DNA from: Deltaproteobacteria bacterium
Lineage (GTDB): Bacteria; Desulfobacterota; Syntrophobacteria; BM002
NCBI GenBank assembly: GCA_022340905.1
Contig: JAJDNB010000040.1
Location: 9,603-73,602 of the forward strand
Reading direction: 5' to 3'
DNA length: 64,000 nucleotides
Below the pieces are notes generated by a model that was not told the DNA's origin, searched no databases, and saw only the letters and a program-made list of their open reading frames with translations. Made by a program: the position numbers and the translations under genes. Shown piece by piece: positions 11,835 through 57,744 of the stretch. Positions within the stretch are counted from its first letter, which is position 1, and each line of letters opens with the position of its first letter.

Positions 11835-11839
11835 GGCAT
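11813..11839. repeat. Heptamer tandem repeat GCATAGA overlapping the PaaI-gene stop
   Basis: gggcataga gcataga gcatagg gcat; encodes the tail GIEHRA and the TAG stop. Confidence 0.85.
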
Positions 11840-28632: not shown

Positions 28633-28769
28633 TTTCACCCTCCCTTTGCGCTGTGACGATTCTACCATATATAATCAGGAGAACAAGGAGGAAATGGGAC
28701 TGGGGTTGGCAGAATTCTTGCTTATACAGATAGGGGTTTCCGCAGAAATGAAATGACGGCAGGGAGGGT

Positions 28770-36735: not shown

Positions 36736-36957
36736 TTTACTTATTTTTATTGCAGAAAGCGCTCTGGTTAACTCTAATCTGAGCCTTCTTGCCTATCGAT
36801 CGTCCATCTCTTAATGGATTACTTATGGGGTGGGGAGAACCAACCCTTTTCTGCCTTTGTCTTTCTCAGGAGATATTGCCATTTTACGCTGGAGAAGTTG
36901 GCAAGGATTTGGTTTTGGCTAGTGCTTTCTCCCATCCGAATTGACGGATATAGGAAA

Positions 36958-38082
36958 ATGAAAAGAGCGATCCATTTTGCTCTGCTCTTGGCTCTGTTAA
37001 CTTTTCAGAATCTTACGGTTACTGCACAAGAGCCCATCAGAATCGGCGTTTATTTGCCCATGACCGGTAGTGCTGCTGTTTTTGGCCAGATGGAATGGCT
37101 TGGTATTCAGACAGCGCATGCCATGACCGACGAGGTCTTGGGACGGAAAGTCAAACTGGTACTGAAAGACAGCAAAAGCGACCCAACTGAAGCAGCAGGT
37201 GCTGTGGAGAGTTTGGTTAAAGAGCATAAAGTGGTGGGCATCGTAGGTGGAGCAACAAGTGCAGAAGCTCTAGCTGGAGGCTCAATAGCAGAGAAGTACG
37301 GGATACCAATGATTTCACCTTCTGCCACAAATCTCCTGGTTACGCGAGATAAAAAATACGTGTTTCGAGCTTGCTTCGACGATTCTTTCCAAAGCCAGGT
37401 CGCCGCCAGGCAGGCCAGAATAGCCATGGGTGCCGAGACTGCGGCGGTGATCGTTGATATCGCTAAGGCAGATTATAGCGTCGGCTTGGGGAATCTTTTC
37501 CTGAAGGCCTTTGGAGAGATGGGCGGCAAGGTGGTTATCACAGCATACATCCAAACGGGTGACCGAGATTTTAAAAGTCAACTTTCAGAGGTGAATGGAG
37601 CTAATCCAGAGATTATTTATGCACCGAACTACTATAAGGAAAATGCTCTTTTGGCCAAACAGGCCAGGGAACTGGGGATAAAGGCGCCTATTCTCATGGC
37701 CGATGGAGCTCATGTGCCAGAACTCATACAAGATGGTGGGAAGGCCGTGGAAGGGGTTTACCTTACCGCTCATTTCAGTCTGGAGGCGGTGAATACCAAT
37801 TTGGGTCAAAGGTTTGTTGCCAAATTCAAGAAGAAATATCAGAGGGACGCCGATGGTTTTGGTGCTCTGGGAGCGGATGCCTATTTTATTCTCACCGGGG
37901 CGATTGGCAGGGCTGAGTCCTCAAAGGGATCCACGATACGAACCGCTTTAACTCAAATGAGAAATTTCAAAGGGGTTACCGGTGCGATCAAGATTGAAGA
38001 GAATGGCAAGACGGTTAAGAGCCTCGTGGTTACCAGAGTGAACAATGGTAAATTCGATTACGTAGCCACAGTGAATCCTTAA
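36958..38082 (+). CDS. Branched-chain amino acid ABC substrate-binding protein 2
   Basis: Signal peptide, IRIGVYLPMTG, SPSATN, FRACFDDSFQ, ADG; ATG 36958. Confidence 0.9.
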   Translation: MKRAIHFALLLALLTFQNLTVTAQEPIRIGVYLPMTGSAAVFGQMEWLGIQTAHAMTDEVLGRKVKLVLKDSKSDPTEAAGAVESLVKEHKVVGIVGGATSAEALAGGSIAEKYGIPMISPSATNLLVTRDKKYVFRACFDDSFQSQVAARQARIAMGAETAAVIVDIAKADYSVGLGNLFLKAFGEMGGKVVITAYIQTGDRDFKSQLSEVNGANPEIIYAPNYYKENALLAKQARELGIKAPILMADGAHVPELIQDGGKAVEGVYLTAHFSLEAVNTNLGQRFVAKFKKKYQRDADGFGALGADAYFILTGAIGRAESSKGSTIRTALTQMRNFKGVTGAIKIEENGKTVKSLVVTRVNNGKFDYVATVNP

Positions 38083-38117
38083 GGTGCGAGTACTTTGCCT
38101 CCGTGGCCCATTCGCGC

Positions 38118-38147
38118 TTGACAGACAAGTTTTCTTTTACCTATACT
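38118..38147 (+). promoter_or_regulatory. Putative sigma70 promoter for binding protein 3
   Basis: TTGACA, 18 nt, TATACT. Confidence 0.6.
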
Positions 38148-38207
38148 CCCTCACCAAAAAATGGAGTTAAACATATTATTTTATCTTCTTTTGAGGAGGC
38201 AGTTATT

Positions 38208-39338
38208 ATGAAAAATCTTCTTGCAAAGCTGTTCGTTGCTTCCGTAGTTGGCCTGTTTATCGTTGCTGGAGTGGTTGGGGTCGGCCATGCCGCCGACACG
38301 ATCAAACTGGGTGTGGCTGGACCGCATAGCGGCGATCTTGCCTCTTATGGAATCCCAACCGTAAAAGCAGCCGAGCTTGTGGTTAAAGAAATCAATGCAA
38401 AGGGCGGAGTCCTTGGCAAACAGGTTGAGTTGCTCGTAGAAGATGACGTCTGCAAACCTGAGGTGGCCACCAACACGGCGACCAAGCTGGTATCGGAAAA
38501 AGTTGATGTGGTTCTGGGTCACATCTGCAGCGGTGCCACTAAAGCGGCCCTGGGCATCTATAAAGATTCGAATATCATCGCCATGTCACCTTCGGCCACC
38601 AACCCGGCCTTGACCCAGAGCGGCGATTATCCAAACTTCTTCCGCACCATTGCCTCTGACGATGCCCAGGCAAAACTTGAAGTGGATTTCGCCCTTAATG
38701 TGTTGAAGGTCAAGAAGATAGCCGTGCTTCATGACAAGGGCGACTATGGTAAGGGACTGGCCGAGTTCGCCAAGGCTTTTCTGGAGAATGCCCCTCAGGC
38801 CAAGGTTGTCTTGTACGAGGGCATTACCCCGGGAGCCGTCGATTATTCTGCAGTTGTTCAGAAGATCAGACGCTCGGGAGCCGAAGCGGTCATATTCGGC
38901 GGTTATCATCCGGAGGCGTCCAAGATTGTCAGCCAGATGCGCAAAAAAAGAATGAAAACCATCTTCATTTCTGATGACGGCGTAAAGGATGACACCTTCA
39001 TCAAGGTTGCCAAAGAGTATGCTGAAGGAGTTTATGCCACCGGGCCCAAAGATACATCAAAGAATCCCATGGCGATTGCAGCGGAAGAGGCGCATAAGAA
39101 GGCATACGGTGAAGATCCCGGGGCGTTTTTTCTCAACGCCTATGCCGCTACGTTGGCCCTTCTTAACGGAATCGAAAAGGCCGGTTCAACTGACTACGGT
39201 GCAGTGGAAAAGGCACTGAGAACCCAATTCGTTGACACACCCCTTGGAAAGATCCGTTTTGACGAGAAAGGAGATGCAACGGGTATAGGCTTCTCCATGT
39301 ATCAGGTACAAAACGGAGTATATGTTGAGTTGAAATAG
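38208..39338 (+). CDS. livK: Branched-chain amino acid ABC substrate-binding protein 3 (LivJ/LivK-like)
   Basis: GAGGAGG RBS, DDVCKP, GHICSGAT, SPSATNP, FFRT, GGYHPE. Confidence 0.92.
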   Translation: MKNLLAKLFVASVVGLFIVAGVVGVGHAADTIKLGVAGPHSGDLASYGIPTVKAAELVVKEINAKGGVLGKQVELLVEDDVCKPEVATNTATKLVSEKVDVVLGHICSGATKAALGIYKDSNIIAMSPSATNPALTQSGDYPNFFRTIASDDAQAKLEVDFALNVLKVKKIAVLHDKGDYGKGLAEFAKAFLENAPQAKVVLYEGITPGAVDYSAVVQKIRRSGAEAVIFGGYHPEASKIVSQMRKKRMKTIFISDDGVKDDTFIKVAKEYAEGVYATGPKDTSKNPMAIAAEEAHKKAYGEDPGAFFLNAYAATLALLNGIEKAGSTDYGAVEKALRTQFVDTPLGKIRFDEKGDATGIGFSMYQVQNGVYVELK

Positions 39339-39537
39339 CATATTGAGCAGCTCACTGGAGTCCAGATCTAAGATTAGGGTCAGGCACGGGCGAGAGAGGA
39401 TACCTGCTTACTGCAACTCTTGCGGCCTGGACCATTTATCTGCGACATTTCGAAAAACGATTAGGCCTGCCTAGAAAGCCTCCCACCGGGGGTGAAAGCT
39501 GGAATGTTCCAAGTGAAGGTAATGACTAACTGTTTCT

Positions 39538-39574
39538 TCAGGGGGCAGGCTGCCAAGCCTGCCCCCTGATTTTT
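39538..39574 (+). terminator. Strong intrinsic terminator between livK and livH
   Basis: 14-bp perfect stem TCAGGGGGCAGGCT-GCCA-AGCCTGCCCCCTGA followed by TTTTT. Confidence 0.8.
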
Positions 39575-39646
39575 CAACCCCACCAACTTTGGGAAAATAT
39601 CGGTAACGATCACTAGAATCAATTTAGGGAGCCTCAGTAGCCAGAC

Positions 39647-40549
39647 ATGGAATATTTCCTTGAACTTTTTCTCGGAGGGCTGACCCGGGGGAGCATCTAT
39701 GCCCTCATAGCCCTTGGCTACACCATGGTGTATGGCATTATCGAGCTGATAAACTTTGCCCATGGTGAAATTTACATGATTGGAGGATTCACAGCTCTGA
39801 TCATCGCAGGCGTCCTAACTATGCTGGGATGGAATGTGATTGCAATCCTGGTTATAGCCTCGATTGCGGCGGTAGTCTACTCGTCAGCATACGGTTACAC
39901 AATTGAAAAGATGGCATACAAACCCCTGCGCCAGGCCCCGCGTCTTTCTGCTCTGATCAGCGCCATCGGCATGTCACTGTTCCTGCAAAATTATGTACTT
40001 CTGGCCCAAACTTCTGACTTTCTGCCATTTCCGAGGTTGATTCCGGATTTTGAGTTCTGGGAACCCTATGCCCATATTATCAGTTCTCAGGAAATTGTTA
40101 TCATCATCAGCACGACAATTGTCATGATTCTGCTCACCTTTTTGATTAAGTTCACCAAAATTGGTAAAGCCATGCGCGCAACCGCCCAGGACAGGAAGAT
40201 GGCCATGTTGGTGGGCATTGATGTGGACCGGGTTATCTCGGTCACATTTCTCGTTGGGTCGGCAACGGCCGGTTTGGGTGGGGTACTCATTGCCTCGCAC
40301 ATCGGCCAGATAAATTTTTACGTGGGATTCATTGCTGGCATAAAGGCATTTGTTGCGGCAGTACTAGGTGGAATCGGCAGTATGCCGGGTGCTGTTCTGG
40401 GAAGCCTTGTTCTAGGCTGGACAGAAAGCTTTTTTACTGGTTACGTCTCCAGTGACTACGAGGACCTTTTTGCCTTTTTATTTTTGGTCTTTATCCTCAT
40501 CTTCAGGCCCGCAGGAATTCTCGGACGCTCCGAAGAGGAAAAGGTGTAG
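39647..40549 (+). CDS. livH: BCAA ABC transporter permease LivH
   Basis: GSIYALIALGYTMVYGIIELINFAHGEIYM, GKAMRATAQD, KAFVAAVLGGIGS. Confidence 0.96.
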   Translation: MEYFLELFLGGLTRGSIYALIALGYTMVYGIIELINFAHGEIYMIGGFTALIIAGVLTMLGWNVIAILVIASIAAVVYSSAYGYTIEKMAYKPLRQAPRLSALISAIGMSLFLQNYVLLAQTSDFLPFPRLIPDFEFWEPYAHIISSQEIVIIISTTIVMILLTFLIKFTKIGKAMRATAQDRKMAMLVGIDVDRVISVTFLVGSATAGLGGVLIASHIGQINFYVGFIAGIKAFVAAVLGGIGSMPGAVLGSLVLGWTESFFTGYVSSDYEDLFAFLFLVFILIFRPAGILGRSEEEKV

Positions 40550-40635
40550 GATCAAGAGATAATTTGCCACGGTTTGGCGGTCATTAGAGATGGGGCCATG
40601 ACATCGATCAATGAAGCTTTGTTGGGATTTGAGAA

Positions 40636-41865
40636 TTGATTACTTTTGAAGAAATCAAAAGGTCTTTTCTGGTTTGCCTGTGGTTCATGTTTCTGACCTT
40701 CCCAATTATGGTCATCAGGGTCAATACCGTTGAAGACGTGATTGAGTGGCGTTGGTTTAACTTGCTAATCGTTGGGCTCGGCAGTTTTTTCCTCAGTTTT
40801 GTTTGGCGTTACTTCATAAGAAAACAGGAAAGGGGCAAGAAAAAGGCTCAGGCGGGTGAGATTGGCGAAATAGCTATCAGCCGGAGGCTCCTTAGAGAGC
40901 CAAAGATTTATGTGCCAGCCCTGGTAGTGCTTTCAATTTTCGCCGTGGTGTTTCCTTTCATATTCTCCATGTATCAGATCAATATTATGATCACCGGTCT
41001 CATATATGTCATGCTCGGCCTGGGACTGAACATAGTCGTTGGACTTGCCGGTCTGTTGGATCTGGGATATGTGGCCTTTTATGCGGTGGGAGCATACTCC
41101 TATGCACTCTTGAACTATCATTTTGGCATAAACTTCTGGATCGCGCTTCCCATCGGTGCTGGTCTGGGAGCATTCTTCGGCATTCTTCTGGGATTTCCAG
41201 TGCTGCGTTTGCGGGGAGACTACTTGGCTATCGTAACTCTCGGTTTTGGGGAAATCATACGGCTCATCCTGGAAAACTGGAATGAATTTTCTTTCGGTCC
41301 CAGCGGTATTGCAAATATACCGCGCCCACCGTTTTTCGGGGTTCAACTTTCTCTGCAGAATGCAACCATATATATTTACTACCTGATGATTCTTCTGGTG
41401 ATTTTCACCATTTTTGTTGTCCAACGGTTGCAGAATTCCAGAATCGGCAGGGCCTGGATCGCCTTAAGGGAGGATGAGGTCGCCTGTGAGGCCATGGGCA
41501 TCGACAAGAGGAAGACGAAGCTGACCGCCTTCGCTTTGGGCGCAACCTGGGCGGGGATGGCAGGTGTTATCTTTGCGGCCAAGACTACCTTCATAAATCC
41601 AGCAAGTTTTACCATTTGGGAATCGATTATCATTCTCTGTATTGTGGTGCTGGGTGGGATGGGCTCCATCGTCGGGGTTGTTATCGGAGCATTTATCTTG
41701 ATTCTGCTGCCGGAATATCTAAGGGTGTTCTCCGAATACCGGATGCTGGTTTTCGGGGCTATGCTGGTGCTCATGATGGTCTTTCGTCCCGGCGGAATCG
41801 TCAGCGATGTCCGACGAACATACAAGTTTGAAGGGTTGCAAAACAGAAACGGAGAGAATCTCTAG
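40636..41865 (+). CDS. livM: BCAA ABC transporter permease LivM
   Basis: LGLNIVVGLAGLLDLGYVAFY, LRLRGDYLAIVTLGFGEI, GRAWIALREDE. Confidence 0.96.
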   Translation: MITFEEIKRSFLVCLWFMFLTFPIMVIRVNTVEDVIEWRWFNLLIVGLGSFFLSFVWRYFIRKQERGKKKAQAGEIGEIAISRRLLREPKIYVPALVVLSIFAVVFPFIFSMYQINIMITGLIYVMLGLGLNIVVGLAGLLDLGYVAFYAVGAYSYALLNYHFGINFWIALPIGAGLGAFFGILLGFPVLRLRGDYLAIVTLGFGEIIRLILENWNEFSFGPSGIANIPRPPFFGVQLSLQNATIYIYYLMILLVIFTIFVVQRLQNSRIGRAWIALREDEVACEAMGIDKRKTKLTAFALGATWAGMAGVIFAAKTTFINPASFTIWESIIILCIVVLGGMGSIVGVVIGAFILILLPEYLRVFSEYRMLVFGAMLVLMMVFRPGGIVSDVRRTYKFEGLQNRNGENL

Positions 41866-41869
41866 GCAA

Positions 41870-42658
41870 ATGGCACCAATACTTGACGTAAAAGGTCTGA
41901 GTATGGACTTTGGCGGCCTGCGGGCGCTGGATCGATTGGATCTAGATGTTGATGAGGGGGAAATCGTTGCTATAATCGGGCCCAACGGTGCCGGGAAAAC
42001 CACTTTTTTTAACTGTATAACCGGGATTCACCCTCCGACTGAAGGAGAGATGCTCATATCACCCCCCGGAAAGAAGCCAAAAAGTTTAAAGGGTCTGAAG
42101 CCCAACCAGGTAACCGAACGGGGTTTGGCTCGGACATTTCAGAATATCCGGTTGTTTCCTAATATGACGGTCCTAGAGAATGTCATGATCGGTCGCCACT
42201 GCCGAATGTCAGCAGGCATCCTGGGAGCAATTTTGCGGGGTTCATCAACCGTCAAAGAAGAAAAGGAAGTGGTGGGAGAGAGCTACGTCATCCTCGAAAA
42301 GGTCGGCCTCACAGACTTCGTCAATGAGTTCGCCATGAATCTTCCTTACGGGGCTCAGAGGCGTCTTGAAATCGCCAGGGCCATGGCGACAGAGCCGTTC
42401 CTACTCTTGCTTGATGAACCGGCTGCTGGTATGAACATCAGGGAAACCAAGGAGCTTGACGAGCTGATCATATGGATCCGCGACAATGAGAAGATGTCCA
42501 TTCTGCTGATCGAACATGATATGAAGCTCGTTATGAGTCTGTCCGATCGCATTTTTGTGGTGGATTACGGAAGGAAAATCGCCCAGGGTACACCCTCAGA
42601 GATAAAACATAATCCGGCCGTGATCAAAGCATATCTCGGGGAAGAGATTGATGCTTGA
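41870..42658 (+). CDS. livG: BCAA ABC transporter ATPase LivG
   Basis: GPNGAGKTT, RTFQNIRLF, LPYGAQRRLEIARA, LLLDEPAAG, LIEHDM. Confidence 0.96.
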   Translation: MAPILDVKGLSMDFGGLRALDRLDLDVDEGEIVAIIGPNGAGKTTFFNCITGIHPPTEGEMLISPPGKKPKSLKGLKPNQVTERGLARTFQNIRLFPNMTVLENVMIGRHCRMSAGILGAILRGSSTVKEEKEVVGESYVILEKVGLTDFVNEFAMNLPYGAQRRLEIARAMATEPFLLLLDEPAAGMNIRETKELDELIIWIRDNEKMSILLIEHDMKLVMSLSDRIFVVDYGRKIAQGTPSEIKHNPAVIKAYLGEEIDA

Positions 42659-43358
42659 GCTAAGGAATTTGCAAACTTTCTACGGCGGCATTCATGCCTT
42701 GAAAGATGTCAGCATGAAGGTCTCGGAGGGAGAGATAATTACCCTGATAGGTGCGAACGGAGCAGGGAAAACCACGACGCTCATGTCCATTTGTGGAATA
42801 GTACCACCGAGGTCGGGCGAAATACTGTTCATGGGTAAACCGATTCATCATTTAACTCCCAATGAAATTGTCTCCCTAGGAATCTCCCAGGTTCCTGAAG
42901 GGAGAAGAATTTTTCCCTACTTAACCGTGATAGAAAACCTGGACATGGGAGCTTTTTTGCGCACTGACAAAGACGGGATAAAGCAGGATATGGAGTACAT
43001 CTTCGAGCTTTTTCCGATTCTTGCAGAAAGGCGCCAACAGGCTGGTGGCACACTCAGTGGTGGTGAACAACAGATGCTCGCCATTTCTCGTGCACTGATG
43101 GCCAGACCGATGCTCCTGTTGATGGATGAGCCCTCCCTGGGACTAGCACCCCTTATAGTCAAGCAGATTTTCGAAATCATCAGGAAGGTGAACAGTGAAA
43201 ATAACACCACCATTTTCCTTGTGGAGCAGAATGCAAACTTGGCCCTCAAAGTGGCCCACAGGGGTTATGTAATAGAAACCGGCCGGATAACACTTGCAAA
43301 TTCTGCAAAAAAACTCCTTGCCGACGAAAAGGTAAAGAAGGCATATTTGGGGTTGTGA
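42651..43358 (+). CDS. livF: BCAA ABC transporter ATPase LivF
   Basis: GANGAGKTT, VPEGRRIF, LSGGEQQMLAI, MDEPSLGLAP, LVEQNA. Confidence 0.96.
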   Translation: MLELRNLQTFYGGIHALKDVSMKVSEGEIITLIGANGAGKTTTLMSICGIVPPRSGEILFMGKPIHHLTPNEIVSLGISQVPEGRRIFPYLTVIENLDMGAFLRTDKDGIKQDMEYIFELFPILAERRQQAGGTLSGGEQQMLAISRALMARPMLLLMDEPSLGLAPLIVKQIFEIIRKVNSENNTTIFLVEQNANLALKVAHRGYVIETGRITLANSAKKLLADEKVKKAYLGL

Positions 43359-43586
43359 GTTACTTGGCACAACGACAAGTGGCGACGAAGCAACCTTAGA
43401 TACCTAGAAACTCATTCAATCCTACCTCTCTCAAAGCAAAACACCATCTTGTAGTCAGCAACTCCCTCCAGGTCATGGGGCGTATCGCTTTTTCTTCTTT
43501 TAGCCACATGAGCGTGAGGAAACTTGGGTTTGTTGACGACCACCACCCAGGTGAAGGAGAAGGTGAATTTGGGATAACCGCCTTCA

Positions 43587-43615
43587 TTGACAAACCATAA
43601 CGCTTACGTTAATCT
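43587..43615 (+). promoter_or_regulatory. Putative sigma70 promoter for binding protein 4
   Basis: TTGACA, 17 nt, TAATCT; the ORF-track TTG start at 43587 is this -35 box. Confidence 0.55.
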
Positions 43616-43694
43616 TCCAGCTTATTACACGAAATTGCTAATGATACCGCATAGAGAGAATCAAACAGTAAGACCTTCTGGGACGGTGGGTGAT

Positions 43695-44813
43695 ATGAAG
43701 AAGTTCTTATGTTTTATCCTTGCTTTGGGGTTAATGACTGGCGTTGCGTGGGCAGATATAATCACGATCCCAGTGGTTTCACCCTTCAGTGGCCAGTTGG
43801 CCTCATTCGGTGAAGGCGTGAAAAATGGAGCTGCCCTTAAGGCTTCTGAGATAAATGCTGCCGGAGGAATTAGCGGCCATAAAGTGAAGGTAGTTTTGGA
43901 AGACGACGGCTGCGACCCGAACGAGGCGGCGATTGTGGCCACCAAGTTAGCCAAAGATCCAGAGGTGGTTGTGGTTGTTGGCCACCTTTGCAGTTCAGCT
44001 ACGTTAGCTGCCCTGCCAATTTACCGTGAGGCAAAACTGCCGGCTATCTCTCCAGCCTCCACCAATGCGGCTATCGGCATGATGAGCCCATACTACTTTC
44101 GCAACATATATAGAGATGACTTCCAGGGGACCTTTCTCGCCCGATATGTGGATGAAGTGAAAGGTTTCAAACGTATAGCCATATTCTATGAGGTCAACGA
44201 TTACTCCTTGGGGTTGATGAGCTCTTTTATGAAGGAAGCGGTAAGGCGGGGCATTAAAATCCTTGGAACCGAACCCTATACTTCAGACACCACTGACTTC
44301 AAACCCCAGCTGATCAAGTTCAAGATGATGAGACCTGATGCCATTTTTAATCCCGGCTATGCGCCCCAGGGGACCCTAATCGCTTCCCAGGCTGCTAGTC
44401 TTGGTCTGAAGGTCAAACTTTTCGGGGCTGATGGTCTTGACAACGACCTTATGCTCCAGAATCCCGACGCCGAGGGTCTATTCGTCACTACCCCATTTTT
44501 AGCGGACAAGGCAGGACCGCAGGCCGCTCAGTTCATCGAGGCTTATAAGCGAGTTTTTGGCAAAGACCCAAACTGGTTTGCCGCAAACACTTACGATGCG
44601 GTGGGCATGGCAGCGGAAGCCATCAAGGCAGTCGGCATGGACCGAGAAAGGATACGAGACTATCTGGCAGGGATCAACTCCCCAGACAAGGCATATGCAG
44701 GAGTTGCGGGCAAGACATACTTTGATGAAAACGGTGATTGCCTTAAGGCCGCTTACATTAAAGAGATTAAAGGCGGCAAATGGATCAGCGCGAAAGAACA
44801 GTTGCAACAGTAG
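43695..44813 (+). CDS. Branched-chain amino acid ABC substrate-binding protein 4
   Basis: Signal MKKFLCFILALG, DDGCDP, GHLCSSAT, SPASTN, PGYAPQ, GADG. Confidence 0.9.
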   Translation: MKKFLCFILALGLMTGVAWADIITIPVVSPFSGQLASFGEGVKNGAALKASEINAAGGISGHKVKVVLEDDGCDPNEAAIVATKLAKDPEVVVVVGHLCSSATLAALPIYREAKLPAISPASTNAAIGMMSPYYFRNIYRDDFQGTFLARYVDEVKGFKRIAIFYEVNDYSLGLMSSFMKEAVRRGIKILGTEPYTSDTTDFKPQLIKFKMMRPDAIFNPGYAPQGTLIASQAASLGLKVKLFGADGLDNDLMLQNPDAEGLFVTTPFLADKAGPQAAQFIEAYKRVFGKDPNWFAANTYDAVGMAAEAIKAVGMDRERIRDYLAGINSPDKAYAGVAGKTYFDENGDCLKAAYIKEIKGGKWISAKEQLQQ

Positions 44814-48131: not shown

Positions 48132-49592
48132 ATGCAATTAAGAGCCGATGCCAGGGAAAGCATTAAACCTTTTAGATTGGTGAAGTATTTTTCATTGACC
48201 AGCCTGGTGGTGATTCTCATTCCGACCCTGTTGCTCTCCATCTTCATATCTCAGCGTGCCAAGAACGAACTTCTCAGAAAGAGCGAGCAGTACGCCCTCC
48301 TTGTTGCCACAAATTTGAACCATCAAGTTTTCACCCAATTCGTCCTGCCCACTGTGCTCAAATACGGCCAGATCCGACTTGGCGACCCTAAACAGTATGA
48401 GCGCATGGACAAGGTTGTTCGTAATACCATTCACGGATTCAATCTCTACCGGGTGGATGTGTATGACTTACATGAGATGGTTGCCTATAGTACAGACAGT
48501 TCCTTGGTTGGGCTCGCAGGCTTGGGGGGAATCGATTTCAAGTTGGCCCGCGAAGGCAAGTCTTCATCACAGCTAATCTCCCGTGGAAGTTTCCTTGGTT
48601 TCGAATTGGGCGCAGTAGCAAAGCAGAGGCAGCTGAAGACTTACATTCCATTTCGGATGGAAAGACCATTAGGGCGGGGCTATGGTCGAATATTGGGGGT
48701 TTTTGAAATTACCCAGGATATCTCTGAGGATTATTCAGCCATTACTCGTTTTCAAAACATAATTATAGCGAGCTTGATTGGGGTGATGAGCCTTCTGTTT
48801 TTTGTCTTGCGTTTCATTGTAAAACGAGGCGAAAAAATCATCGCCAAAAGAGCCGAAGAGAAACGTCGTTTAGAGGATCAACTGCATCAGGCTGAGAGGA
48901 TGGCAGTCCTAGGCAAAATGGTAGCCGGCATAAGCCATGAAATCCGGAATCCACTTGGGATCATTGGCTCTACTGCCCAGCTTCTCCATGATAAAATGGA
49001 TGAGAGCGATCCCAAAAAACAACTGGGTGAGATAATTATGGAGGAGGCGACCCGTCTCAACTCGATCGTTACAGATTTTCTGGATTTTGCCCGACCCACT
49101 ACTCCAAACTACTCCGAGTGCAGAGTAGATATGGTACTGAGAAGAAACCTGAAGTTTCTCGAAGTTGAACTGGAGCGGCGAGGCATTAGCGTGGAAGTTC
49201 TCTTTGCCGAAAATGGAAGTCCAGTTGTCGCCGATGGCGACCTTCTGTATCGCGCCTTCCTCAACATTTTCGTTAACGCCATGGAGGCGTTGGACGACGG
49301 GGGTACTATCCGGGTAGTTACTCGGTATCGAGATCACCTAGAAGATACCTTGGAGGTAATTATAATGGACACGGGCTCCGGTATTTCTCGGAATGATATA
49401 GGGAAAATATTCGATCCCTTTTATACCACCCGCAAGACCGGAACCGGCTTGGGACTTGCCATAGTCCGAAACATAATCGAGAGCCACGGTGGTACAGTCG
49501 ATATCAAGAGTCCACCACCAGAAGAGCTGGCGCAGCTAGAAAAAAAGGGAACGGCTATTATCATTTCTTTGCCTGTATACCCAGAGCTTTAG
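48132..49592 (+). CDS. Sensor histidine kinase with intact catalytic boxes
   Basis: Two TMs; H-box SHEIRNPL, N-box NIFVNAMEA, G1 DTGSGI, F-box FDPFYTT, G2 GTGLGLAI. Confidence 0.95.
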   Translation: MQLRADARESIKPFRLVKYFSLTSLVVILIPTLLLSIFISQRAKNELLRKSEQYALLVATNLNHQVFTQFVLPTVLKYGQIRLGDPKQYERMDKVVRNTIHGFNLYRVDVYDLHEMVAYSTDSSLVGLAGLGGIDFKLAREGKSSSQLISRGSFLGFELGAVAKQRQLKTYIPFRMERPLGRGYGRILGVFEITQDISEDYSAITRFQNIIIASLIGVMSLLFFVLRFIVKRGEKIIAKRAEEKRRLEDQLHQAERMAVLGKMVAGISHEIRNPLGIIGSTAQLLHDKMDESDPKKQLGEIIMEEATRLNSIVTDFLDFARPTTPNYSECRVDMVLRRNLKFLEVELERRGISVEVLFAENGSPVVADGDLLYRAFLNIFVNAMEALDDGGTIRVVTRYRDHLEDTLEVIIMDTGSGISRNDIGKIFDPFYTTRKTGTGLGLAIVRNIIESHGGTVDIKSPPPEELAQLEKKGTAIIISLPVYPEL

Positions 49593-49684: not shown

Positions 49685-51175
49685 ATGGAAACCGTTCTGA
49701 TCGTTGACGACGAAAAGAATTACCTATTGGTTTTAGAAGCTCTCCTTACCGACGCGGGTTATGAGGTGATTACCTGTGACAACGCCGGTGAGGCTCTTGA
49801 GATTACTACGAGTCATGACCTGGATCTGGTCATAACTGACATGAGGATGCCAGGTGTAGACGGGATGGAGTTTCTGGTTCAATTGAGGGGTCGTCTACCG
49901 GAGATCCCGGTGATCATGATGACCGCATATGCCACGGTGGAAAAGGCTGTAGAAGCCATGAAGAGAGGCGCCTTTGACTATATTACCAAGCCTTTCAAGA
50001 ATGAAGAACTTATACTAACCATTCGTAAAGCCCTAGAGATGCACCGCCTCAAGCGAGAGAACCGTTTGCTCAGCCAGGAACTGCAAGAGCGCTTTAAATT
50101 CGGCAACATTGTTGGTAAGAGCAAGGTTATGCAGCAGGTCTATGAGATTATCGAAAAGGTGGCTCAAACCCGGGCATCAGTGCTGGTGACTGGTGAGTCA
50201 GGTACAGGCAAGGAGCTTATCGCCAGAGCAATACATTTCAACAGCCCCAGAAGTGATAAACCGTTCATTACGGTTAACTGTTCAGCCTTACCGGAAACCC
50301 TGCTGGAAAGCGAACTCTTTGGCCACGAAAGGGGTGCCTTTACCGGGGCTGTAACCAGGCGAAAAGGTCGTTTTGAATTGGCTCATAACGGAACCTTATT
50401 CTTGGACGAAGTGGGCGATATGTCTCCTGCTCTGCAAGTGAAGTTGTTGAGAGTTCTGCAAGAAATGAGATTTGAGCGTGTGGGCGGTACTGCCACCTTG
50501 CAGGTAGATGCCCGCCTGGTAGCCGCTTCTAACCGCGATCTCAAGCGGGAGGTGGATCTCGGACGGTTCAGGGAGGATCTGTATTATCGGTTGAAAGTTG
50601 TTCATATACATGTACCCCCGCTCAGAGAACGGCGTGATGACATACCACTTTTGGTTCACCATTTTTTAAGAAAGGTGGCCAAGGCCAACGAGCTTCCAGT
50701 AAAAAATGTAAGCCATGAGGCAATTAAGTGTCTGTACCAGTATGACTGGGTTGGTAACGTCCGCGAACTAGAGAATGTCATAGAACGGGCAGTAATTCTA
50801 TGCGACGGTGATGATATTAGGACCCAGGATTTGCCTGAGGAGCTGTTCCAACATCGACTGCCAGGTATTACAGAAGGGGCCACGGCTCAAACTGAAAGTA
50901 TCTCAGACCTGGTGGGAGAGGGCGAATTTCTGCCCTATCTCGGGCTCAATCAACGGCAAATGAAAGCAATTAATTTTATAAAAAAGAACGGATTCATCAC
51001 GAACAAATACTACACGCAAATCAACTCGGTGATGAAAACGCAAGCGAAAACCGAACTGAGACAGCTCTTAGATCAGGGGCTGATCAGACGAGTTGGTAAG
51101 GGGCGAAACGTGCGCTATCTACTTCCATCACCGACCAATCGCCGACCGATTACCGACCGATTACCGACCGATTGA
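49685..51175 (+). CDS. Sigma-54-dependent response regulator (NtrC family) with atypical winged-helix C-terminus
   Basis: Receiver (VDDE, TDMRMP, TAYA, KPF), AAA+ GESGTGKE, ESELFGHERGAFTGA, FLDEVG, GNVRELEN; no Fis-type HTH. Confidence 0.95.
   Translation: METVLIVDDEKNYLLVLEALLTDAGYEVITCDNAGEALEITTSHDLDLVITDMRMPGVDGMEFLVQLRGRLPEIPVIMMTAYATVEKAVEAMKRGAFDYITKPFKNEELILTIRKALEMHRLKRENRLLSQELQERFKFGNIVGKSKVMQQVYEIIEKVAQTRASVLVTGESGTGKELIARAIHFNSPRSDKPFITVNCSALPETLLESELFGHERGAFTGAVTRRKGRFELAHNGTLFLDEVGDMSPALQVKLLRVLQEMRFERVGGTATLQVDARLVAASNRDLKREVDLGRFREDLYYRLKVVHIHVPPLRERRDDIPLLVHHFLRKVAKANELPVKNVSHEAIKCLYQYDWVGNVRELENVIERAVILCDGDDIRTQDLPEELFQHRLPGITEGATAQTESISDLVGEGEFLPYLGLNQRQMKAINFIKKNGFITNKYYTQINSVMKTQAKTELRQLLDQGLIRRVGKGRNVRYLLPSPTNRRPITDRLPTD
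51131..51174. repeat. 11-bp tandem repeat x4 (CCGACCGATTA consensus) at the regulator 3' end
   Basis: ccgaccaatcg ccgaccgatta ccgaccgatta ccgaccgattg; stop TGA at 51173-51175. Confidence 0.9.
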
Positions 51176-51466
51176 TTGCTGCCAGTCCATGCTCCTTTGA
51201 TATTAATTCTCGTGATATCAGCATATTAGAGTACTTTGCGGGGTTGGGCTATGATTCCAAGGTTCAACGAATGATTCACTCGCTCGGCAAGAGGTTCTAT
51301 GGTATTGTTATTATTTGATAATTATTTTTTTCGGTGCTCCTTGTTGAATAAAGTCAAAGCTGGTAAGAAATTTGCTAATCTAGTTAGACCGAGTAAGGAT
51401 GGTAAGGTTACCAGAATAATGAATGCCCTGCCTTCTTGACTCTTCAACTCTTTTTCTCCTTTCTCC

Positions 51467-51506
51467 GACCGTCTGGATGTGGCCCCGTCCAGACGGTCTT
51501 TTTTTT
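51467..51506 (+). terminator. Intrinsic terminator upstream of the hrcA promoter
   Basis: GACCGTCTGGA, 10-nt loop, TCCAGACGGTC, then T8. Confidence 0.85.
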
Positions 51507-51587
51507 GACTCTCGCACTCCATTGCTCTCTCGGAGCAAAAGACTCAGTTCACTCTTTGCATTTAGTCAGTTGCCCACTATTTGTTTC

Positions 51588-51616
51588 TTGACAAAGGATG
51601 TAGTGATTGCTAATTT
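51588..51616 (+). promoter_or_regulatory. Sigma70 promoter of hrcA-grpE-dnaK
   Basis: TTGACA, 17 nt, TGc-TAATTT, immediately upstream of CIRCE. Confidence 0.6.
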
Positions 51617-51617
51617 T

Positions 51618-51644
51618 TTGGCACTCTTTAGAAAGGAGTGCTAA
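51618..51644 (+). promoter_or_regulatory. CIRCE operator (HrcA binding site)
   Basis: TTGGCACTC-N9-GAGTGCTAA, one mismatch to TTAGCACTC-N9-GAGTGCTAA, 12 nt before hrcA. Confidence 0.95.
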
Positions 51645-51656
51645 TATATCTAGGCC

Positions 51657-52700
51657 ATGCCCCAATTAGTGCGAGGTGAAAGAGCTCGACGAGTACTTGA
51701 GGCGATCATTCTCGAGTACATCCGAGGTGGAGTGCCGGTAGGTTCTCGAGCCATAGCGAAACGATACGGCCTGAGTGTGAGTCCGGCTACAATCCGTAAT
51801 GTCATGGCAGACCTTGAAGAACTCGGTCTTCTCTATCAACCTCATACTTCAGCAGGGAGGATTCCCACCGAGCTTGGCCTTCGGGTCTATATTGATTCGA
51901 TCTTAAAGATTAAACAACTCAGTAACGCAGATAGAGAAAGGATAAGACGGTCCTTTAGGGGGGGAGTGGCTCAAGTTGAGGGGTTGCTCAAAGAAACCTC
52001 CAAAGTTCTTTCATCTTTCTCTAAACAGGCCGGGGTAGTTCTCACACCCAGACTGTCTCTGACGGTATTTAAGCGCATTGAGTTTGTACGGCTGAGGGCA
52101 AAGATGGTGATGACCATTCTGGTTTCTCAGGCCGGGATAGTGCATAACACGATTTTCGAAGTCGATGCAGATATTTCCCAGGAAGAGCTGGATAAGTATA
52201 GCCGCTACCTAAATGATCTGTTGCAGGATCTCACTCTCCACCAAGTTAAAGCGAGGCTTCTGGATGAGATGAGAAAAGAAAAAGTGCTGTTTGACCGCTT
52301 ATTGGCCAAGGCCTTGGAATTAAGCCAGAAAGCTTTGCAGGAGAATATAGAAGATAGCGAGATCTACATAGAGGGCAGGACAAATCTCCTTGATAATCCG
52401 GAATTTGCTGATGTTGAACAGATGAGACGCATCTTCAGTGCCTTTGAGGAAAAGAGCAAGATAATAGATCTTTTGGACAAAAGTATGTCGGCTGGGGGAG
52501 TAAACATTTTTATTGGCTCTGAGAGTGAATTGCTGGACATGGAAAGTGTGAGCTTTATTACTTCTCCCTACACGAGCGGTGATGAAATTCTGGGCACTCT
52601 CGGAGTGATTGGTCCGACGAGAATGGACTATTCTCGGATTATTCCACTCGTGGACTACACTGCCAAGCTCTTGAGCAAGATGCTGGGAGAAACGTTATAA
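51657..52700 (+). CDS. hrcA: Heat-inducible transcription repressor
   Basis: PVGSRAI, SPATIRNVMADLEELG.L.QPHTSAGRIPT..G.R.YID, GVIGPTRMDY. Confidence 0.98.
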   Translation: MPQLVRGERARRVLEAIILEYIRGGVPVGSRAIAKRYGLSVSPATIRNVMADLEELGLLYQPHTSAGRIPTELGLRVYIDSILKIKQLSNADRERIRRSFRGGVAQVEGLLKETSKVLSSFSKQAGVVLTPRLSLTVFKRIEFVRLRAKMVMTILVSQAGIVHNTIFEVDADISQEELDKYSRYLNDLLQDLTLHQVKARLLDEMRKEKVLFDRLLAKALELSQKALQENIEDSEIYIEGRTNLLDNPEFADVEQMRRIFSAFEEKSKIIDLLDKSMSAGGVNIFIGSESELLDMESVSFITSPYTSGDEILGTLGVIGPTRMDYSRIIPLVDYTAKLLSKMLGETL

Positions 52701-53528: not shown

Positions 53529-53583
53529 TAAAACGGGAGATTACTAGTAAACAAAATTTGGATGGGAGATCAAGGAGGAAACA

Positions 53584-55506
53584 ATGGGAAAGATTGTCGG
53601 CATTGATTTGGGGACCACAAATTCAGTCGTTGCGGTGATGGAAGGAAAAGAGGCAAAGGTCCTCACAAATGCCGAAGGAAGCCGCACGACCCCTTCTATT
53701 GTTGCTTTCACTGAAAGTGGAGAACGTCTCTTGGGTCAAGTGGCAAAACGGCAGGCCATCACCAACCCGGAAAATACTGTCTATGCAGTAAAACGATTGA
53801 TAGGCAGAAAATACGAATCTGCCGAGGTGAAACACGACATCACTATCTGTCCCTATAAAATCGTCAGGGCCAAAAATGGAGATGCCCATATTGAAATACG
53901 CGGTAAAGAATACAGCCCGGCGGAAATCTCTGCCATGGTTCTCCAGAAGATGAAGCAGACCGCTGAAGACTATCTCGGGGAAAAAATTACCGATGCTGTT
54001 ATCACAGTCCCTGCTTACTTCAACGATAGTCAGCGCCAAGCCACCAAGGATGCAGGGAAAATTGCCGGACTGAACGTTTTGAGGATAATCAACGAGCCCA
54101 CCGCAGCGTCACTGGCCTACGGTCTGGACAAGAAAAGGGACGAGAAGATAGCCGTCTTTGACTTGGGTGGCGGAACCTATGATATTTCCATTCTGGAGAT
54201 CGGCGACGGCGTATTCGAGGTAAAGGCGACCAATGGTGACACCCATCTCGGTGGCGAGGATTTTGACCAGAGAATTATCGATTGGTTGGCCGATGAGTTT
54301 CGCAAAGACCAGGGAATCGATTTGCGAAGTGACAAGATGGCCCTGCAGCGGCTGAAGGAGGCTGCGGAGAAGGCAAAAATGGAGCTTTCCACCTCCATGG
54401 AAACCGACGTCAACCTGCCCTTTGTTACTGCCGACGCCAGCGGTCCAAAGCACCTGAACATCAAGTTGAGCAGGTCCAAAATGGAATCGATGGTGGAAGA
54501 CCTGATTGAAAAATTAGTACCCCCCATGCAAACCGCTCTCAAGGATGCTGGATTGAAGACTTCCGACATTGACGAAGTCATACTGGTAGGCGGCATGACT
54601 CGTATGCCGCGGGTGCAGCAGAAAGTGAAAGATTTCTTTGGCAAAGAGCCACACAAGGGCGTAAATCCCGACGAGGTGGTTGCCGTAGGGGCTGCCATCC
54701 AAGGCGGTGTGCTCAAAGGCGACGTGAAAGATGTTCTGCTTCTAGACGTTACCCCCTTGTCGCTGGGCATTGAAACCCTTGGCGGAGTGATGACTAGACT
54801 CATCGACAAGAACACCACCATCCCAACTCGCAAGAGCCAGATCTTTTCCACTGCCGCTGACAATCAACCGGCTGTTTCTATCCACGTTTTGCAGGGGGAA
54901 CGGGAAATGGCAGCCAACAATAAAACGCTGGGGCGCTTTGAATTAGTGGGCATTCCGCCCGCTCCGAGGGGAGTACCACAAATCGAGGTGACCTTCGACA
55001 TTGATGCAAATGGTATTGTGAACGTCTCGGCTAAGGATCTGGGTACGGGGAAAGAGCAGTCAATCCGCATAACCGCTTCCAGTGGCTTGAGTGAGGAGGA
55101 GATCGAGCAAGCCGTCAAGGAAGCGGAAATGCATGCCGAAGATGACAAGAAGAAGAGAGAACTGGTTGAGGCCAGGAACCAAGCAGACTCACTAGTTTAT
55201 CAAACCGAGAAAACGCTCAAAGAGATGGGAGACAAGGTTGATGGAGCAACCAGACAGAACATCGAGGAGCACATTCAACGGTTGAAGACGGCAATGGAAG
55301 GAGATGATGCCGAAGCCATCAAGCGGAGCTCGGAGGAATTGATGCAGGCTTCTCACAAAGTAGCGGAGGCCATGTATCAGCAGGCGACTCAGGCCGGAGC
55401 AGGTGCGGCTCAGCAGCAAACCGGTGAGGCTGCCTCGACCGCTGCTGGTAGTGAGGAAGACGTGGTGGAGGCTGAATTTGAGGAAGTTGACGACGAAAAG
55501 AAGTAA
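53584..55506 (+). CDS. dnaK: Molecular chaperone DnaK
   Basis: [42 protein letters not shown]. Confidence 0.99.
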
Positions 55507-55585: not shown

Positions 55586-55635
55586 TTTTATGGGTAGAGG
55601 GCATGGGGTTTGATATTCAGCAACGGGAAGAACCG

Positions 55636-57744
55636 ATGCAACACAGGGTAAAGATTCTCCGGGGGATAGCTCTCTGGTTGTTGCCATTCATTATCATAGG
55701 CTGCGCCCTGTTACCGCCGAAAAAAGAGGTGGCAGTTGAGGCTCCAGCTGAGGTAGGAGAAAAAGAGGCTATCCTGCAACTGGCCATGGCCGAAGAGGCC
55801 TTCAAGGCGGGCAATCTGGAGGAGGCATCCCAGCGGTACCGAGAGCTGGCTATGGCCTTTCCAGGCAGTCCTCAGGCAGCGCAGGCTTTGCTTCGACAAG
55901 GAGAAATCGACTATAGCCTGGAGAAATATGAAAAGGCTGCCTCTTGGTTTCAACAGGTAATCAAAGAGTTCCCTCTTAGATCGGAGGGAAATGAAGCCCG
56001 TCTCCGGCTGCTTCGTTGCTATCTGAAGCTGGAGCGTTTCAATGACGCAGTGGAAACAGGTAGACCTTTGATAAAATATTTGCCTGAGAAATCTCAAAAA
56101 GCTCTGGCTGCCGAGATTGTAGGTGATGCTGAGGCGGCGCGACTCAACTATGCCAAGGCACTAAAGTGGTATGTCACATCAGACGAACTTGCCGAGGGTG
56201 ACAAACGTATATTTTTGGCGGCGAAGGTGGACATCGTCCTTAAACACCTCGGCAGAGACGAGGTAGTAGCGCTGCTGGCGGAGTATCCAGAGACCTTTCC
56301 CAATCTTCAACTGCAGACCCGGCTGGTGGAAATAGACATGGAGAGCGGGCAATTTGGTGTGGCGCAGAAAAAATTACAGTCTCTCATCGAAAGGTGGCCT
56401 GAGCATCCACTTGTCGACACCTGGAAAGGGATGAGCGCAAAAATTGACGAGTGGATGCAAGTGGATATGACCGCTGTCGGCTGTGTACTACCTCTGAGTG
56501 GTCGCTATCAAGCCTATGGTGACAGGATCTTGCGGGGACTAGTAATGGCGGCCCAGGACTTTAAGAATGTTGGTGGCGATATTCAGTTGATTATCAAAGA
56601 TAGTGGCGGCGACCCAGGTGTTGCCGTTGCTGCAGTGCGTGATCTTGTCATGGATAACAAGGTTGCTGCCATCATCGGGCCCCTTAGCCGGGTTGCTGCG
56701 GAGGCCGCTGCTGAGGAAGCAGAGAAACTCTGGGTTCCCATAATAACTCTCACTCAAAAAGAGGGTGTAAGCCACATTGGCAGTTACGTATTCCGCTACT
56801 TTCTTAGCAATGAGGAACAAACAAGGGCACTGGTGGAATATGCTGTACTTGGCCTTGACTACAAACGTTTCGCCATTCTTTATCCTGATGACAGTTACGG
56901 CACCCGGCTGATGAATCTCTTTTGGGATGAACTGGATCGCTTGGGTGCAGAGGTCAGAGGAGTAGAAACCTATGATCCCTCTCAAACAGATTTTGCCGAG
57001 CAGATTAAAAAGCTGGTGGGTCTTTACTATCCTCGAGTGGAAGATGAAACCAGCGAATGGACAGAGGGAGTAAAAACTGACAAAGGCTCCTCAGCTGGCT
57101 TGAAGGGACAAGCGCCTGGAGGTCCGGGGGAGGAGGAGCTGACACCCATTGTTGATTTTGATGCCATCTTTATTCCGGACGGCTACAGTCAAGTGGGTCT
57201 CATTGCACCCCAGTTGGCATATCACGACGTCACAGGTGTGAAACTATTGGGGACGAACCTGTGGAACTCTCAGAAGTTAGTCGAGATGGCTGGACCCTAT
57301 CTTCAGGACGCTGTTTTCGTGGATGGTTTCTTCTCAGGAAGCGGCTTACCATTGACCGGCCGGTTTGTCGAAAGCTATGAGAAAACTTTTGGGGGGAAGC
57401 CTGGGTATCCTGAGGCACAGGCCTATGATACTGTGCGTCTGCTTATGGAGGCCCTCCGTCAGCCTGGGGTGACATCTCGACCTATGCTCCGCGACGCTCT
57501 CTTGGGAATACGGGCGTTGCCGGGAGTGGCGGGTATTGCCTCGGTCAGTCCAGATGGAGAGGTGAGTAAGCCCCCTTTTCTCATTACTATTTATCGGAGG
57601 CGGATGGAGGAGATCCAAGTGGATTTTGAGATGTTAGAGCAGCAGCGGCGGAGATACCTTGAATACTCCACAGGTAAAGATTTGCAGTCTACCCAAAGAC
57701 TTTCGCCTGCCTACAGTTCGCCCATGTCGTCGACTGGTCGGTAG
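55636..57744 (+). CDS. Penicillin-binding protein activator LpoA-like lipoprotein (TPR + periplasmic-binding fold)
   Basis: Lipobox IIGC, N-terminal TPRs, VGCVLPLSGRY, IIGPL, FDAIFIPD, QLAYHDV, AQAYD. Confidence 0.8.
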   Translation: MQHRVKILRGIALWLLPFIIIGCALLPPKKEVAVEAPAEVGEKEAILQLAMAEEAFKAGNLEEASQRYRELAMAFPGSPQAAQALLRQGEIDYSLEKYEKAASWFQQVIKEFPLRSEGNEARLRLLRCYLKLERFNDAVETGRPLIKYLPEKSQKALAAEIVGDAEAARLNYAKALKWYVTSDELAEGDKRIFLAAKVDIVLKHLGRDEVVALLAEYPETFPNLQLQTRLVEIDMESGQFGVAQKKLQSLIERWPEHPLVDTWKGMSAKIDEWMQVDMTAVGCVLPLSGRYQAYGDRILRGLVMAAQDFKNVGGDIQLIIKDSGGDPGVAVAAVRDLVMDNKVAAIIGPLSRVAAEAAAEEAEKLWVPIITLTQKEGVSHIGSYVFRYFLSNEEQTRALVEYAVLGLDYKRFAILYPDDSYGTRLMNLFWDELDRLGAEVRGVETYDPSQTDFAEQIKKLVGLYYPRVEDETSEWTEGVKTDKGSSAGLKGQAPGGPGEEELTPIVDFDAIFIPDGYSQVGLIAPQLAYHDVTGVKLLGTNLWNSQKLVEMAGPYLQDAVFVDGFFSGSGLPLTGRFVESYEKTFGGKPGYPEAQAYDTVRLLMEALRQPGVTSRPMLRDALLGIRALPGVAGIASVSPDGEVSKPPFLITIYRRRMEEIQVDFEMLEQQRRRYLEYSTGKDLQSTQRLSPAYSSPMSSTGR

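Follow-up and report, generated by a model that had tools for sequence, protein, structure and literature searches.

How does a sigma-54 activator find its enhancer when its C terminus is not a Fis-type helix-turn-helix (HTH)? The question is raised by a bacterial enhancer-binding protein (bEBP) encoded in a 64,000-nucleotide stretch of DNA from a Deltaproteobacteria bacterium (contig JAJDNB010000040.1, positions 9,603 to 73,602), which we call the window and number from its first base. The protein is a response-regulator sigma-54 activator of 496 aa (49685..51175, plus strand), built from a receiver (REC) domain, an AAA+ motor, a lid, a linker, a winged helix and a short tail. Comparative analysis leads us to put at about 60% the probability that the winged helix reads an 11-bp repeat array at the end of its own gene as an enhancer, activating the sigma-54 promoter of a candidate small RNA just downstream.

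A winged helix in place of the Fis-type domain

Up to its linker, the activator is a complete NtrC-type protein. Its REC domain (aa 4-113, 49694..50023 on the plus strand, phospho-acceptor D52) matches Pfam PF00072 (Response_reg) at E 1.7e-32. The sigma-54 interaction AAA+ domain (aa 142-309) and AAA lid (aa 314-391), together spanning 50108..50857 on the plus strand, match PF00158 (Sigma54_activat, E 1e-74) and PF25601 (AAA_lid_14, E 3.9e-30), with the GAFTGA motif at aa 217-222 (nt 50333-50350). Receiver residues D8, D9, D52, T80 and K102 are identical throughout 45 homologues, and Walker A (GESGTGKE) and Walker B (D241-E242) are likewise invariant in them. A preliminary description of this DNA, made from the letters alone, had called the receiver and AAA+ domains intact, and the Pfam matches and invariant residues bear this out. 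Directly upstream on the same strand lies the cognate sensor histidine kinase (48132..49592, 486 aa), identified by Pfam HisKA and HATPase_c domains. On this evidence the activator very probably works as an NtrC-class response regulator paired with that kinase.

Homology to ordinary NtrC proteins stops at nt ~50860, leaving the last 105 codons of the ORF. This limit follows from the NCBIfam AtoC, NtrC, ZraR and NtrX models, which align strongly and end at aa ~389-398; the AtoC, NtrC and ZraR models themselves extend to 441-469 positions. The AtoC and NtrC alignments cover aa 2-398 (E 1e-152 and 1e-142) and score 507.7 bits against an equivalog cut-off of 714 and 474.9 against 558.6, respectively, and all NCBIfam equivalog cut-offs are missed. 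The activator falls outside the curated Fis-HTH NtrC equivalogs, whose defining feature, the Fis-type HTH, it lacks. PF02954 (HTH_8/Fis) gave no match at E<=1 to either the whole protein or the tail alone, and PF00486 (Trans_reg_C) gave none to the activator in the same Pfam scan. A hidden, sub-threshold Fis-type HTH is ruled out by the lack of any PF02954 match at this cut-off together with the beta-wing of the modelled fold. The preliminary description had reported the Fis-type HTH as absent, placed the change at 50860 and quoted the C-terminal peptide; the absence is confirmed by the same two results, the coordinate matches the junction set by the NCBIfam alignment ends, and the peptide occurs in the open reading frame (ORF) exactly as quoted.

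The sequence beyond the junction is modelled as a winged helix on a flexible tether. A poorly conserved linker (aa 393-417, 50861..50935, plus strand), predicted to be disordered by AlphaFold2 (AF2; predicted local distance difference test, pLDDT, <50), shows 10-60% identity to orthologues, against 65-97% in the domains. It leads into a winged helix-turn-helix domain at aa 418-481 (50936..51127, plus strand), recognized through AF2, Foldseek and a Pfam scan, in which H1 occupies aa 423-435, H2 440-447 and the recognition helix H3 451-463 (nt 51035-51073), with the wing around G471-K-G473-R. From an alignment of the tail with its homologues (n=21), AF2 predicts a canonical winged helix (H1-b-H2-H3-b-wing-b) with a mean pLDDT of 94.4. 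In the full-length model the winged helix (aa 423-479) has pLDDT 80-86 and aa 484-496 fall below 50. Residues R424, Q425, F431, G436, T439, Y443, L458, G471, G473 and Y478 of the domain are invariant.

Structure places this domain more firmly than sequence does. On its own, the winged-helix sequence finds weak Pfam matches only (DIP2311-like_C, AbiEi_4 and ScpB, the best being DIP2311-like_C at E 3e-3), and the best PDB sequence match of the tail, Fic protein 8cil, is weak at E 0.29. In a Foldseek search of the PDB the closest match is DIP2311 (3lmm, an AlbA_2/HATPase_c_4 protein; template-modelling (TM) score 0.83, root-mean-square deviation (rmsd) 1.1 A), followed by Coxiella Fic2 (8cil, TM 0.81) and then DNA-bound AspA, MarR and SmtB. 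Among the 21 winged helices of the alignment, Pfam recovers DIP2311-like_C in 19 and HTH_DeoR in 6. The window domain scores 18-19 bits for PF22168/PF08220 against a cut-off of 27, and the best E-values among relatives are 7e-6 for PF22168 and 4e-8 for PF08220. Because it falls below the Pfam gathering score, we regard it as a divergent relative and not a curated member.

The same winged helix is found on many other proteins. A profile search of 1.84 billion representatives returned 4364 proteins at E<=1e-3, and the sampled carriers are SLFN_AlbA_2+HATPase_c_4, Fic and TPR proteins and winged-helix arrays. These carriers and the Foldseek matches (3lmm, 8cil) agree with the resemblance to Fic and AlbA_2/RecG-C winged helices that had been noted when the sequence was first read. 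The library consists of 50%-identity clusters and informs on the other hosts of the winged helix, not on activator numbers, because full-length activators are hidden in it by clustering with ordinary NtrC proteins. A further protein search with the winged-helix profile returned 24 short fragments only, from which we draw no census. This type of winged helix is repeated 4-7 times in tandem in two giant proteins of the representative library, P0127 (2918 aa) and P0136 (1085 aa); P0127 additionally has duplicated AlbA_2/HATPase_c_4 modules.

The winged-helix ending is a property of a whole clade. All of the best 120 protein clusters (99% down to 60% identity) have the winged-helix C-terminus at ~97% query coverage, and PF02954 occurs in none of these 120. 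The clade motif reads LNxRQxKAxNFIKKNGFITNKYYxQINxISxRxAxRELxxxVxxGxLxRxGKGRxxRYVL. Scanning one genome per GTDB species, we found 64 loci with the same C-terminus, all in metagenome-assembled genomes labelled Syntrophobacterales, Syntrophobacteraceae, Desulfarculales, Desulfobacterales or 'Deltaproteobacteria'. Their complete ORFs measure 475-532 aa and contain GAFTGA, GAFSGA, GSFTGA or GSFSGA, and most orthologues are 481 aa long; one fragment of the family is labelled Nitrospirota. A further 15 loci, mostly Patescibacteria, encode proteins of ~343 aa whose C-terminal domain is 27-43% identical, and P0212 of the representative library, which is like them in length and layout, is a Fic protein. 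In the closer subclade the gene order is mgsA-(TPR-TPR)-kinase-activator, usually followed by hrcA-grpE-dnaK; in the Syntrophobacteraceae half it is mgsA-kinase-activator; and the kinase adjoins the activator in all related loci examined.

By homology and modelled fold, a DIP2311/Fic-type winged helix is what replaces the Fis-type HTH throughout the family, clade-wide, in an arrangement that is essentially undescribed. The preliminary description had inferred a domain swap that made a new enhancer-binding protein. Replacement by a winged helix stands; as an event of this genome it does not, the architecture being fixed in at least 120 protein clusters and 64 species genomes, from uncultured Desulfobacterota and, by label, Nitrospirota. 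The same counts answer the survey of REC-AAA-winged-helix proteins proposed at that stage. In the literature we found no description of the REC-AAA-winged-helix family, its array, its promoter or its small RNA. The public names of P0057, P0084, P0086 and others read 'sigma-54-dependent Fis family transcriptional regulator', with no Fis-type domain present.

The junction is not an assembly product. Four independent runs yielded contigs that cover 50500-51700, each with 0-3 mismatches; a single contig spans 50500-51362, and contig L115 from a second metagenome is 100% identical. These independent contigs across the junction and the identical L115 rule out an assembly chimera, which had been set beforehand as a refutation.

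Repeat array, promoter and candidate small RNA

The activator gene of the window ends in a direct-repeat array. At 51130..51173 (plus strand), Tandem Repeats Finder (TRF) detects four copies of an 11-bp unit (ACCGACCGATT, 4.0 copies; core GACCGATTA) with a score of 67, the highest of any tandem repeat in the 64-kb window. We propose this array as the enhancer, or upstream activating sequence. Looking for extra regulon members, we found no other GACCGATTA clusters within the window. The array lies inside the window ORF because the stop TGA (51128-51130) became TCA; in the closest relative of the same helix class (P0008, locus L084, type A below) TGA follows ...RYLLP. Comparison with L084 thus defines a 15-aa C-terminal extension (SPTNRRPITDRLPTD, 51128..51172, plus strand) that is translated over the array and, from its pLDDT, predicted to be disordered. 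The 11-bp tandem repeat had initially been placed after the gene; the repeat is real, and its position is within the last 15 codons of the ORF.

Arrays of this kind accompany nearly every related locus of the subclade that could be compared. The comparison drew on 15 species genomes, 9 contigs recovered via protein identity and 25 metagenome contigs recovered via the RNA core described below. Of 48 tabulated loci whose recognition helix could be read, 46 have a TRF array with a period of exactly 11, 2.7-5 copies and the same orientation, and in one of the remaining two, L086, a degenerate 11-bp array can be made out by eye. The array starts no more than 6 nt from the stop codon or, in a subclade with a C-terminal extension, 47-70 nt past the stop. 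Repeat units within one array are homogeneous. Past the array, the spacer is rich in A and T and cannot be aligned between helix classes, and inspection by eye found no convincing IHF consensus in it. A new DNA-recognition mode, part of the preliminary description, thereby gains support of a comparative kind: 3-5 head-to-tail 11-bp direct repeats, against the dyad sites of Fis dimers.

Tandem repeats next to stop codons may be a broader feature of these genomes. In the window, three unrelated genes have 7-bp repeats on the stop codon or just past it (GGATTGC x3.7 at 3761-3786, GCATAGA x3.6 at 11815-11839 and ACTAAGC x4.7 at 13892-13924). In locus L007, AGATTGT is repeated 12.9 times after the small RNA, about 305-394 nt past the activator stop.

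Recognition helix and repeat unit covary. Grouped by the start of H3, the loci fall into eight classes, each with its own repeat core and with zero discordant loci. The largest, type B, has H3 [QH]ISDRHARRDL (27 loci) and unit GTCCGGATTAT, which begins GGCC... in one locus. Type A, with H3 SVM[KQ]TQAK.EL, comprises six loci including the window and has unit GACCGATTA. SVTERHALREL (6 loci) is paired with TGTC[GT]GGATT, SVTNRHAVTEL (4 loci) with TTC[CT]CGAT[CT]A, and SVRKTHA[VI]TEL (3 loci) with GTCCGATTA. The other classes are represented by one locus each: KVSDRHGRREL with GGCCGGATTAT, SISGRHARRDL with GTCCGGTTTAT, and SVMKTHAVTEL with a degenerate unit, GG[TC]CG[AT]TTT. The classes differ from one another in the core of the repeat unit and, in the protein, at the base-contacting start of H3. 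We infer that the N-terminal half of H3 sets specificity, and that winged helix and array evolve and recombine as one cassette.

The window locus carries the trace of one such exchange. Segment identities against 19 loci, sliding DNA identity against L001 and protein identities by domain delimit a mosaic block at 50850..51385 (unstranded) that contains linker, winged helix, array and spacer. Relative to L001, a type B locus, the window is 92% identical in the kinase, 96% in REC and 91% in the AAA+ and lid segment; the linker is not alignable, the winged helix aligns at 77% over 40% of its length, the spacer from array to promoter is again not alignable, and the small RNA is 96% identical. For L084, a type A locus, the same seven segments give 83%, 87%, 87%, 95%, 96%, 83% and 91%, and the array shares the 95-96% identity of linker and winged helix. 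Sliding identity to L001 drops at ~50850 and recovers at ~51389. This loss of identity to L001, together with the affinity to L084, indicates that one recombination replaced linker, winged helix, array and spacer together. Judged by these identities, the swap at the junction is much more recent than the clade-wide replacement: one allele of the winged helix took the place of another and brought the candidate binding site along.

A predicted sigma-54 promoter lies beyond the array. The -24/-12 sequence TGGTAAGAAATTTGCT (51361..51376, plus strand) begins 187 bp past the end of the array; in relatives the promoter is mostly TGGCAAGAAATTTGCT and is located 75-300 bp past the array. Across 46 distinct sequences, TGGCA and TTGC form sharp information peaks with unconserved flanks. 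TGGCA-N7-TTGC is fixed 57-71 nt from the RNA core at every locus with enough sequence, and conservation restarts at the predicted start site. Sigma-54-like matches in the window are no more numerous than expected by chance. One of them, TGGCAGAATTCTTGCT at 28707-28722, precedes the gene for a BrkB-family membrane protein (28770-30152) by 48 nt.

The promoter precedes a candidate sigma-54-dependent small RNA of ~120 nt (51386..51507, plus strand), supported by its fold, covariation and a covariance model. It consists of a 5' stem-loop, a single-stranded pyrimidine tract of 24 nt (UUCAACUCUUUUUCUCCUUUCUC, 51443-51466) that is anti-Shine-Dalgarno-like, a terminator hairpin (51467-51498) and a U-run. 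The window RNA (51388-51507) folds at -42.3 kcal/mol with a z-score of -5.47, and z-scores of the RNA overall range from -2.5 to -5.5. The three-part fold is common to 8 divergent homologues, some of which pair another 5' arm with the conserved CCUUCUUGACUCUUC. Compensatory double changes occur in 7 of 12 hairpin pairs (24 sequences). The covariance model finds a single copy in the window (138.7 bits); the distant clade, scanned as 10-kb loci, contains no match to it.

The element belongs to no catalogued RNA family and is not a small gene. Rfam returned nothing at threshold, the best match being suhB/mmgR at 17.1 bits against 41, which rules out Qrr, GlmY and other Rfam families as its identity. 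A small protein in place of an RNA is also ruled out: ORFs in the element have only 6 codons and their region is variable, and it is the non-coding CU tract that is conserved. Nor is there conservation of the 46-aa gene that was called across the repeats of L084.

Activator and RNA occur side by side in metagenomes. An exact-pattern scan of metagenome contigs for the RNA core recovered 29 contigs, two of them too short to judge. In 25 of 25 contigs that contain the promoter and enough upstream DNA, the winged-helix activator is directly upstream of the RNA. L100 (RNA core at 1856 after reorientation) has a frameshifted activator, either a sequencing error or a recent pseudogene, and keeps the repeats, the promoter TGGCAGGGAAGTTGCA and the RNA. 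Decayed RNA copies at L095 4895-5015 and L108 1585-1706 (both minus strand, 76-87 bits) are without promoter or upstream activator; their CU tract is mutated and their U-run lost, and they appear to be embedded in or beside coding sequence.

Proposed mechanism and competing readings

The arrangement suggests how a tethered winged helix could serve a sigma-54 motor. The kinase would phosphorylate D52. Each winged helix, on its flexible tether of ~25 residues, would bind one 11-bp unit head-to-tail, and with one unit per helical turn the 3-5 sites would lie on one face of the DNA. Protomers concentrated side by side in this way would help the phosphorylated protein to assemble its AAA+ ring. The ring would then loop over the AT-rich spacer to sigma-54 holoenzyme at 51361-51376, ~190 bp downstream, and open-complex formation would lead to transcription of the ~120-nt terminator-ended RNA (51386-51507). 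Its exposed CU-rich tract would probably pair with ribosome-binding sites of target mRNAs. We infer DNA binding to the repeats, sigma-54 dependence, and production and trans action of the RNA from sequence. More tentatively, and at clearly less than even odds, the locus exemplifies a new sigma-54 enhancer architecture, in which tethered monomeric winged helices on an 11-bp array template the AAA+ ring; there would be at least eight orthogonal helix/repeat specificities, with cassettes swapped between lineages, and each would control a member of a new sigma-54-dependent RNA family beside the heat-shock operon hrcA-grpE-dnaK.

Several observations weigh against the proposed mechanism. The -24 element of the window reads TGGTAA, not TGGCAC or TGGCAA, and is a weaker match; rpoN was not seen within the 64-kb window, the only DNA at hand. 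With less than 60 nt between helix and array, physical linkage could account for both covariation and co-transfer. Beside the distant Syntrophobacteraceae orthologues there are no repeats, sigma-54 promoter or RNA, and a convergent gene directly follows the activator. Metatranscriptome contigs with RNA homologues extend into the promoter and flanks and therefore do not delimit a discrete transcript. The last codons of type B genes (..TATGTCCTCAAG) resemble the repeat unit, and slippage from the coding end could therefore seed arrays.

Some of these observations feed an alternative that we judge unlikely but the most serious of the rivals, in which the winged helix binds DNA and the 11-bp array is a slippage product or another factor's site. 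The true enhancer would then lie elsewhere, or the protein would act from solution like FlgR or CtcC. Such a reading draws on the close helix-array linkage, on the repeat-like coding end of type B, on the distant half of the family, which has the same winged helix and no adjoining array, and on the other short tandem repeats found just past stop codons in the window. It fits poorly with the conservation of the array, whose period of 11, copy number, orientation and place upstream of the promoter were kept while the spacer diverged beyond alignment, and with homogeneous units whose class differences track the base-contacting start of H3. In the extension subclade, moreover, the array lies 47-70 nt past the stop and is therefore not derivable from the coding end.

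The RNA element could instead be a sigma-54-driven leader or attenuator with regulated read-through into hrcA-grpE-dnaK, which comes next in the window and in most related loci; we rate this somewhat lower again. Among the starts of 49 window ORFs, the best duplex of the CU tract (51443-51466) is with the dnaK ribosome-binding site (53544-53604, -24.2 kcal/mol), a point in its favour, although this may be generic anti-Shine-Dalgarno pairing. The element ends in a strong covarying hairpin and a U-run, the sequence from terminator to hrcA is not conserved, and hrcA (start 51657) has signals of its own 80-140 nt further on: a sigma-70-type -35 element TTGACA at 51588-51593 and a CIRCE operator (TTGGCACTC-N9-GAGTGCTAA) at 51618-51644, which is visible in most related loci too. 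That the gene is an artefact or in decay, either an assembly chimera of an NtrC gene with foreign sequence or a gene with a pseudogene tail, is so improbable that we treat it as refuted. A C-terminus without a curated family match above threshold and an ORF running through a tandem repeat might invite the idea; contigs from four runs, the identical L115, invariant residues in more than 120 clusters and a confident fold all contradict it.

Known systems, neighbouring genes and significance

The activator combines parts that are familiar separately. Like the group-I bEBPs NtrC, AtoC and ZraR, it has the full REC phospho-acceptor set, a GAFTGA AAA+ domain, a lid and an adjacent kinase; unlike them, it has a winged helix for HTH_8, and its putative enhancer consists of direct repeats where theirs consists of dyad sites. 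OmpR/PhoB winged helices line up head-to-tail on direct repeats whose spacing is about one helical turn, and these regulators activate sigma-70 holoenzyme by direct contact. The likeness to them is confined to the proposed binding geometry, since the activator has no Trans_reg_C domain and has an AAA+ motor for sigma-54. The C-termini of DIP2311 (3lmm) and Fic proteins (8cil, 7xux) superpose at TM 0.81-0.83 and rmsd 0.9-1.9 A with 24-29% identity. There the winged helix is fused to Schlafen/AlbA_2 or Fic modules, and here to a sigma-54 motor; to our knowledge, the DNA targets of these DIP2311/Fic winged helices are largely uncharacterised.

Activators that drive small RNAs are known from other bacteria. 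LuxO-Qrr of Vibrio and GlrK/GlrR-GlmY of enterobacteria comprise two-component sigma-54 activators driving small RNAs; qrr1 is encoded beside luxO, and both LuxO and GlrR use a Fis-type HTH. The window locus shares their layout, from kinase through NtrC-type regulator and sigma-54 promoter to a short terminator-ended RNA by the regulator gene. It differs from them in that its RNA has no Rfam match and its RNA gene is co-directional with the regulator and immediately 3' of it.

For a winged-helix sigma-54 activator, the only printed precedent we found is DVU0151 of Desulfovibrio vulgaris Hildenborough. That protein is a sigma-54 activator without a Fis HTH, and its orthologues match the SUPERFAMILY winged helix SSF46785 (Kazakov et al. 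2015, PMC4641369). It is a one-component regulator with a long unknown N-terminus and a GAFSEA motif, and its predicted sites are ~14-bp TTTTTCGCGCAAAA-like motifs by a sigma-54 promoter, upstream of a transporter operon (PMC4641369). The two proteins are alike as sigma-54 activators with a winged-helix match and no Fis HTH; in contrast to the REC domain here, the N-terminal domain there is unknown, a distinction made from the published description only.

Upstream of mgsA, at 36814-44813 of the window, lie branched-chain amino-acid ABC transporter genes, comprising several Peripla_BP_6 proteins, one permease and two ATPases. After dnaK, at 55603-57744, a TPR+Peripla_BP_6 fusion protein is encoded.

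Sigma-54 activators are the textbook bEBPs, and nearly everything known of their enhancers was learned from dyad sites bound by Fis-type HTH dimers. The genes and flanking DNA of a widespread natural clade suggest that it reads tandem direct repeats with a winged helix instead. New here are the array, the conserved sigma-54 promoter and the small RNA in the window's subclade (about 50 loci), plus the covariation of helix and repeat; database names are corrected as well, for 'Fis family' proteins without a Fis domain. Eight helix-repeat pairs and a natural recombinant make a system for studying how enhancer geometry templates AAA+ ring assembly. The same system suits the DNA specificity of the poorly studied DIP2311/Fic-type winged helix and the co-evolution of regulators with their sites. 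In uncultured relatives of sulfate reducers and syntrophs, an undescribed small RNA family is indicated.

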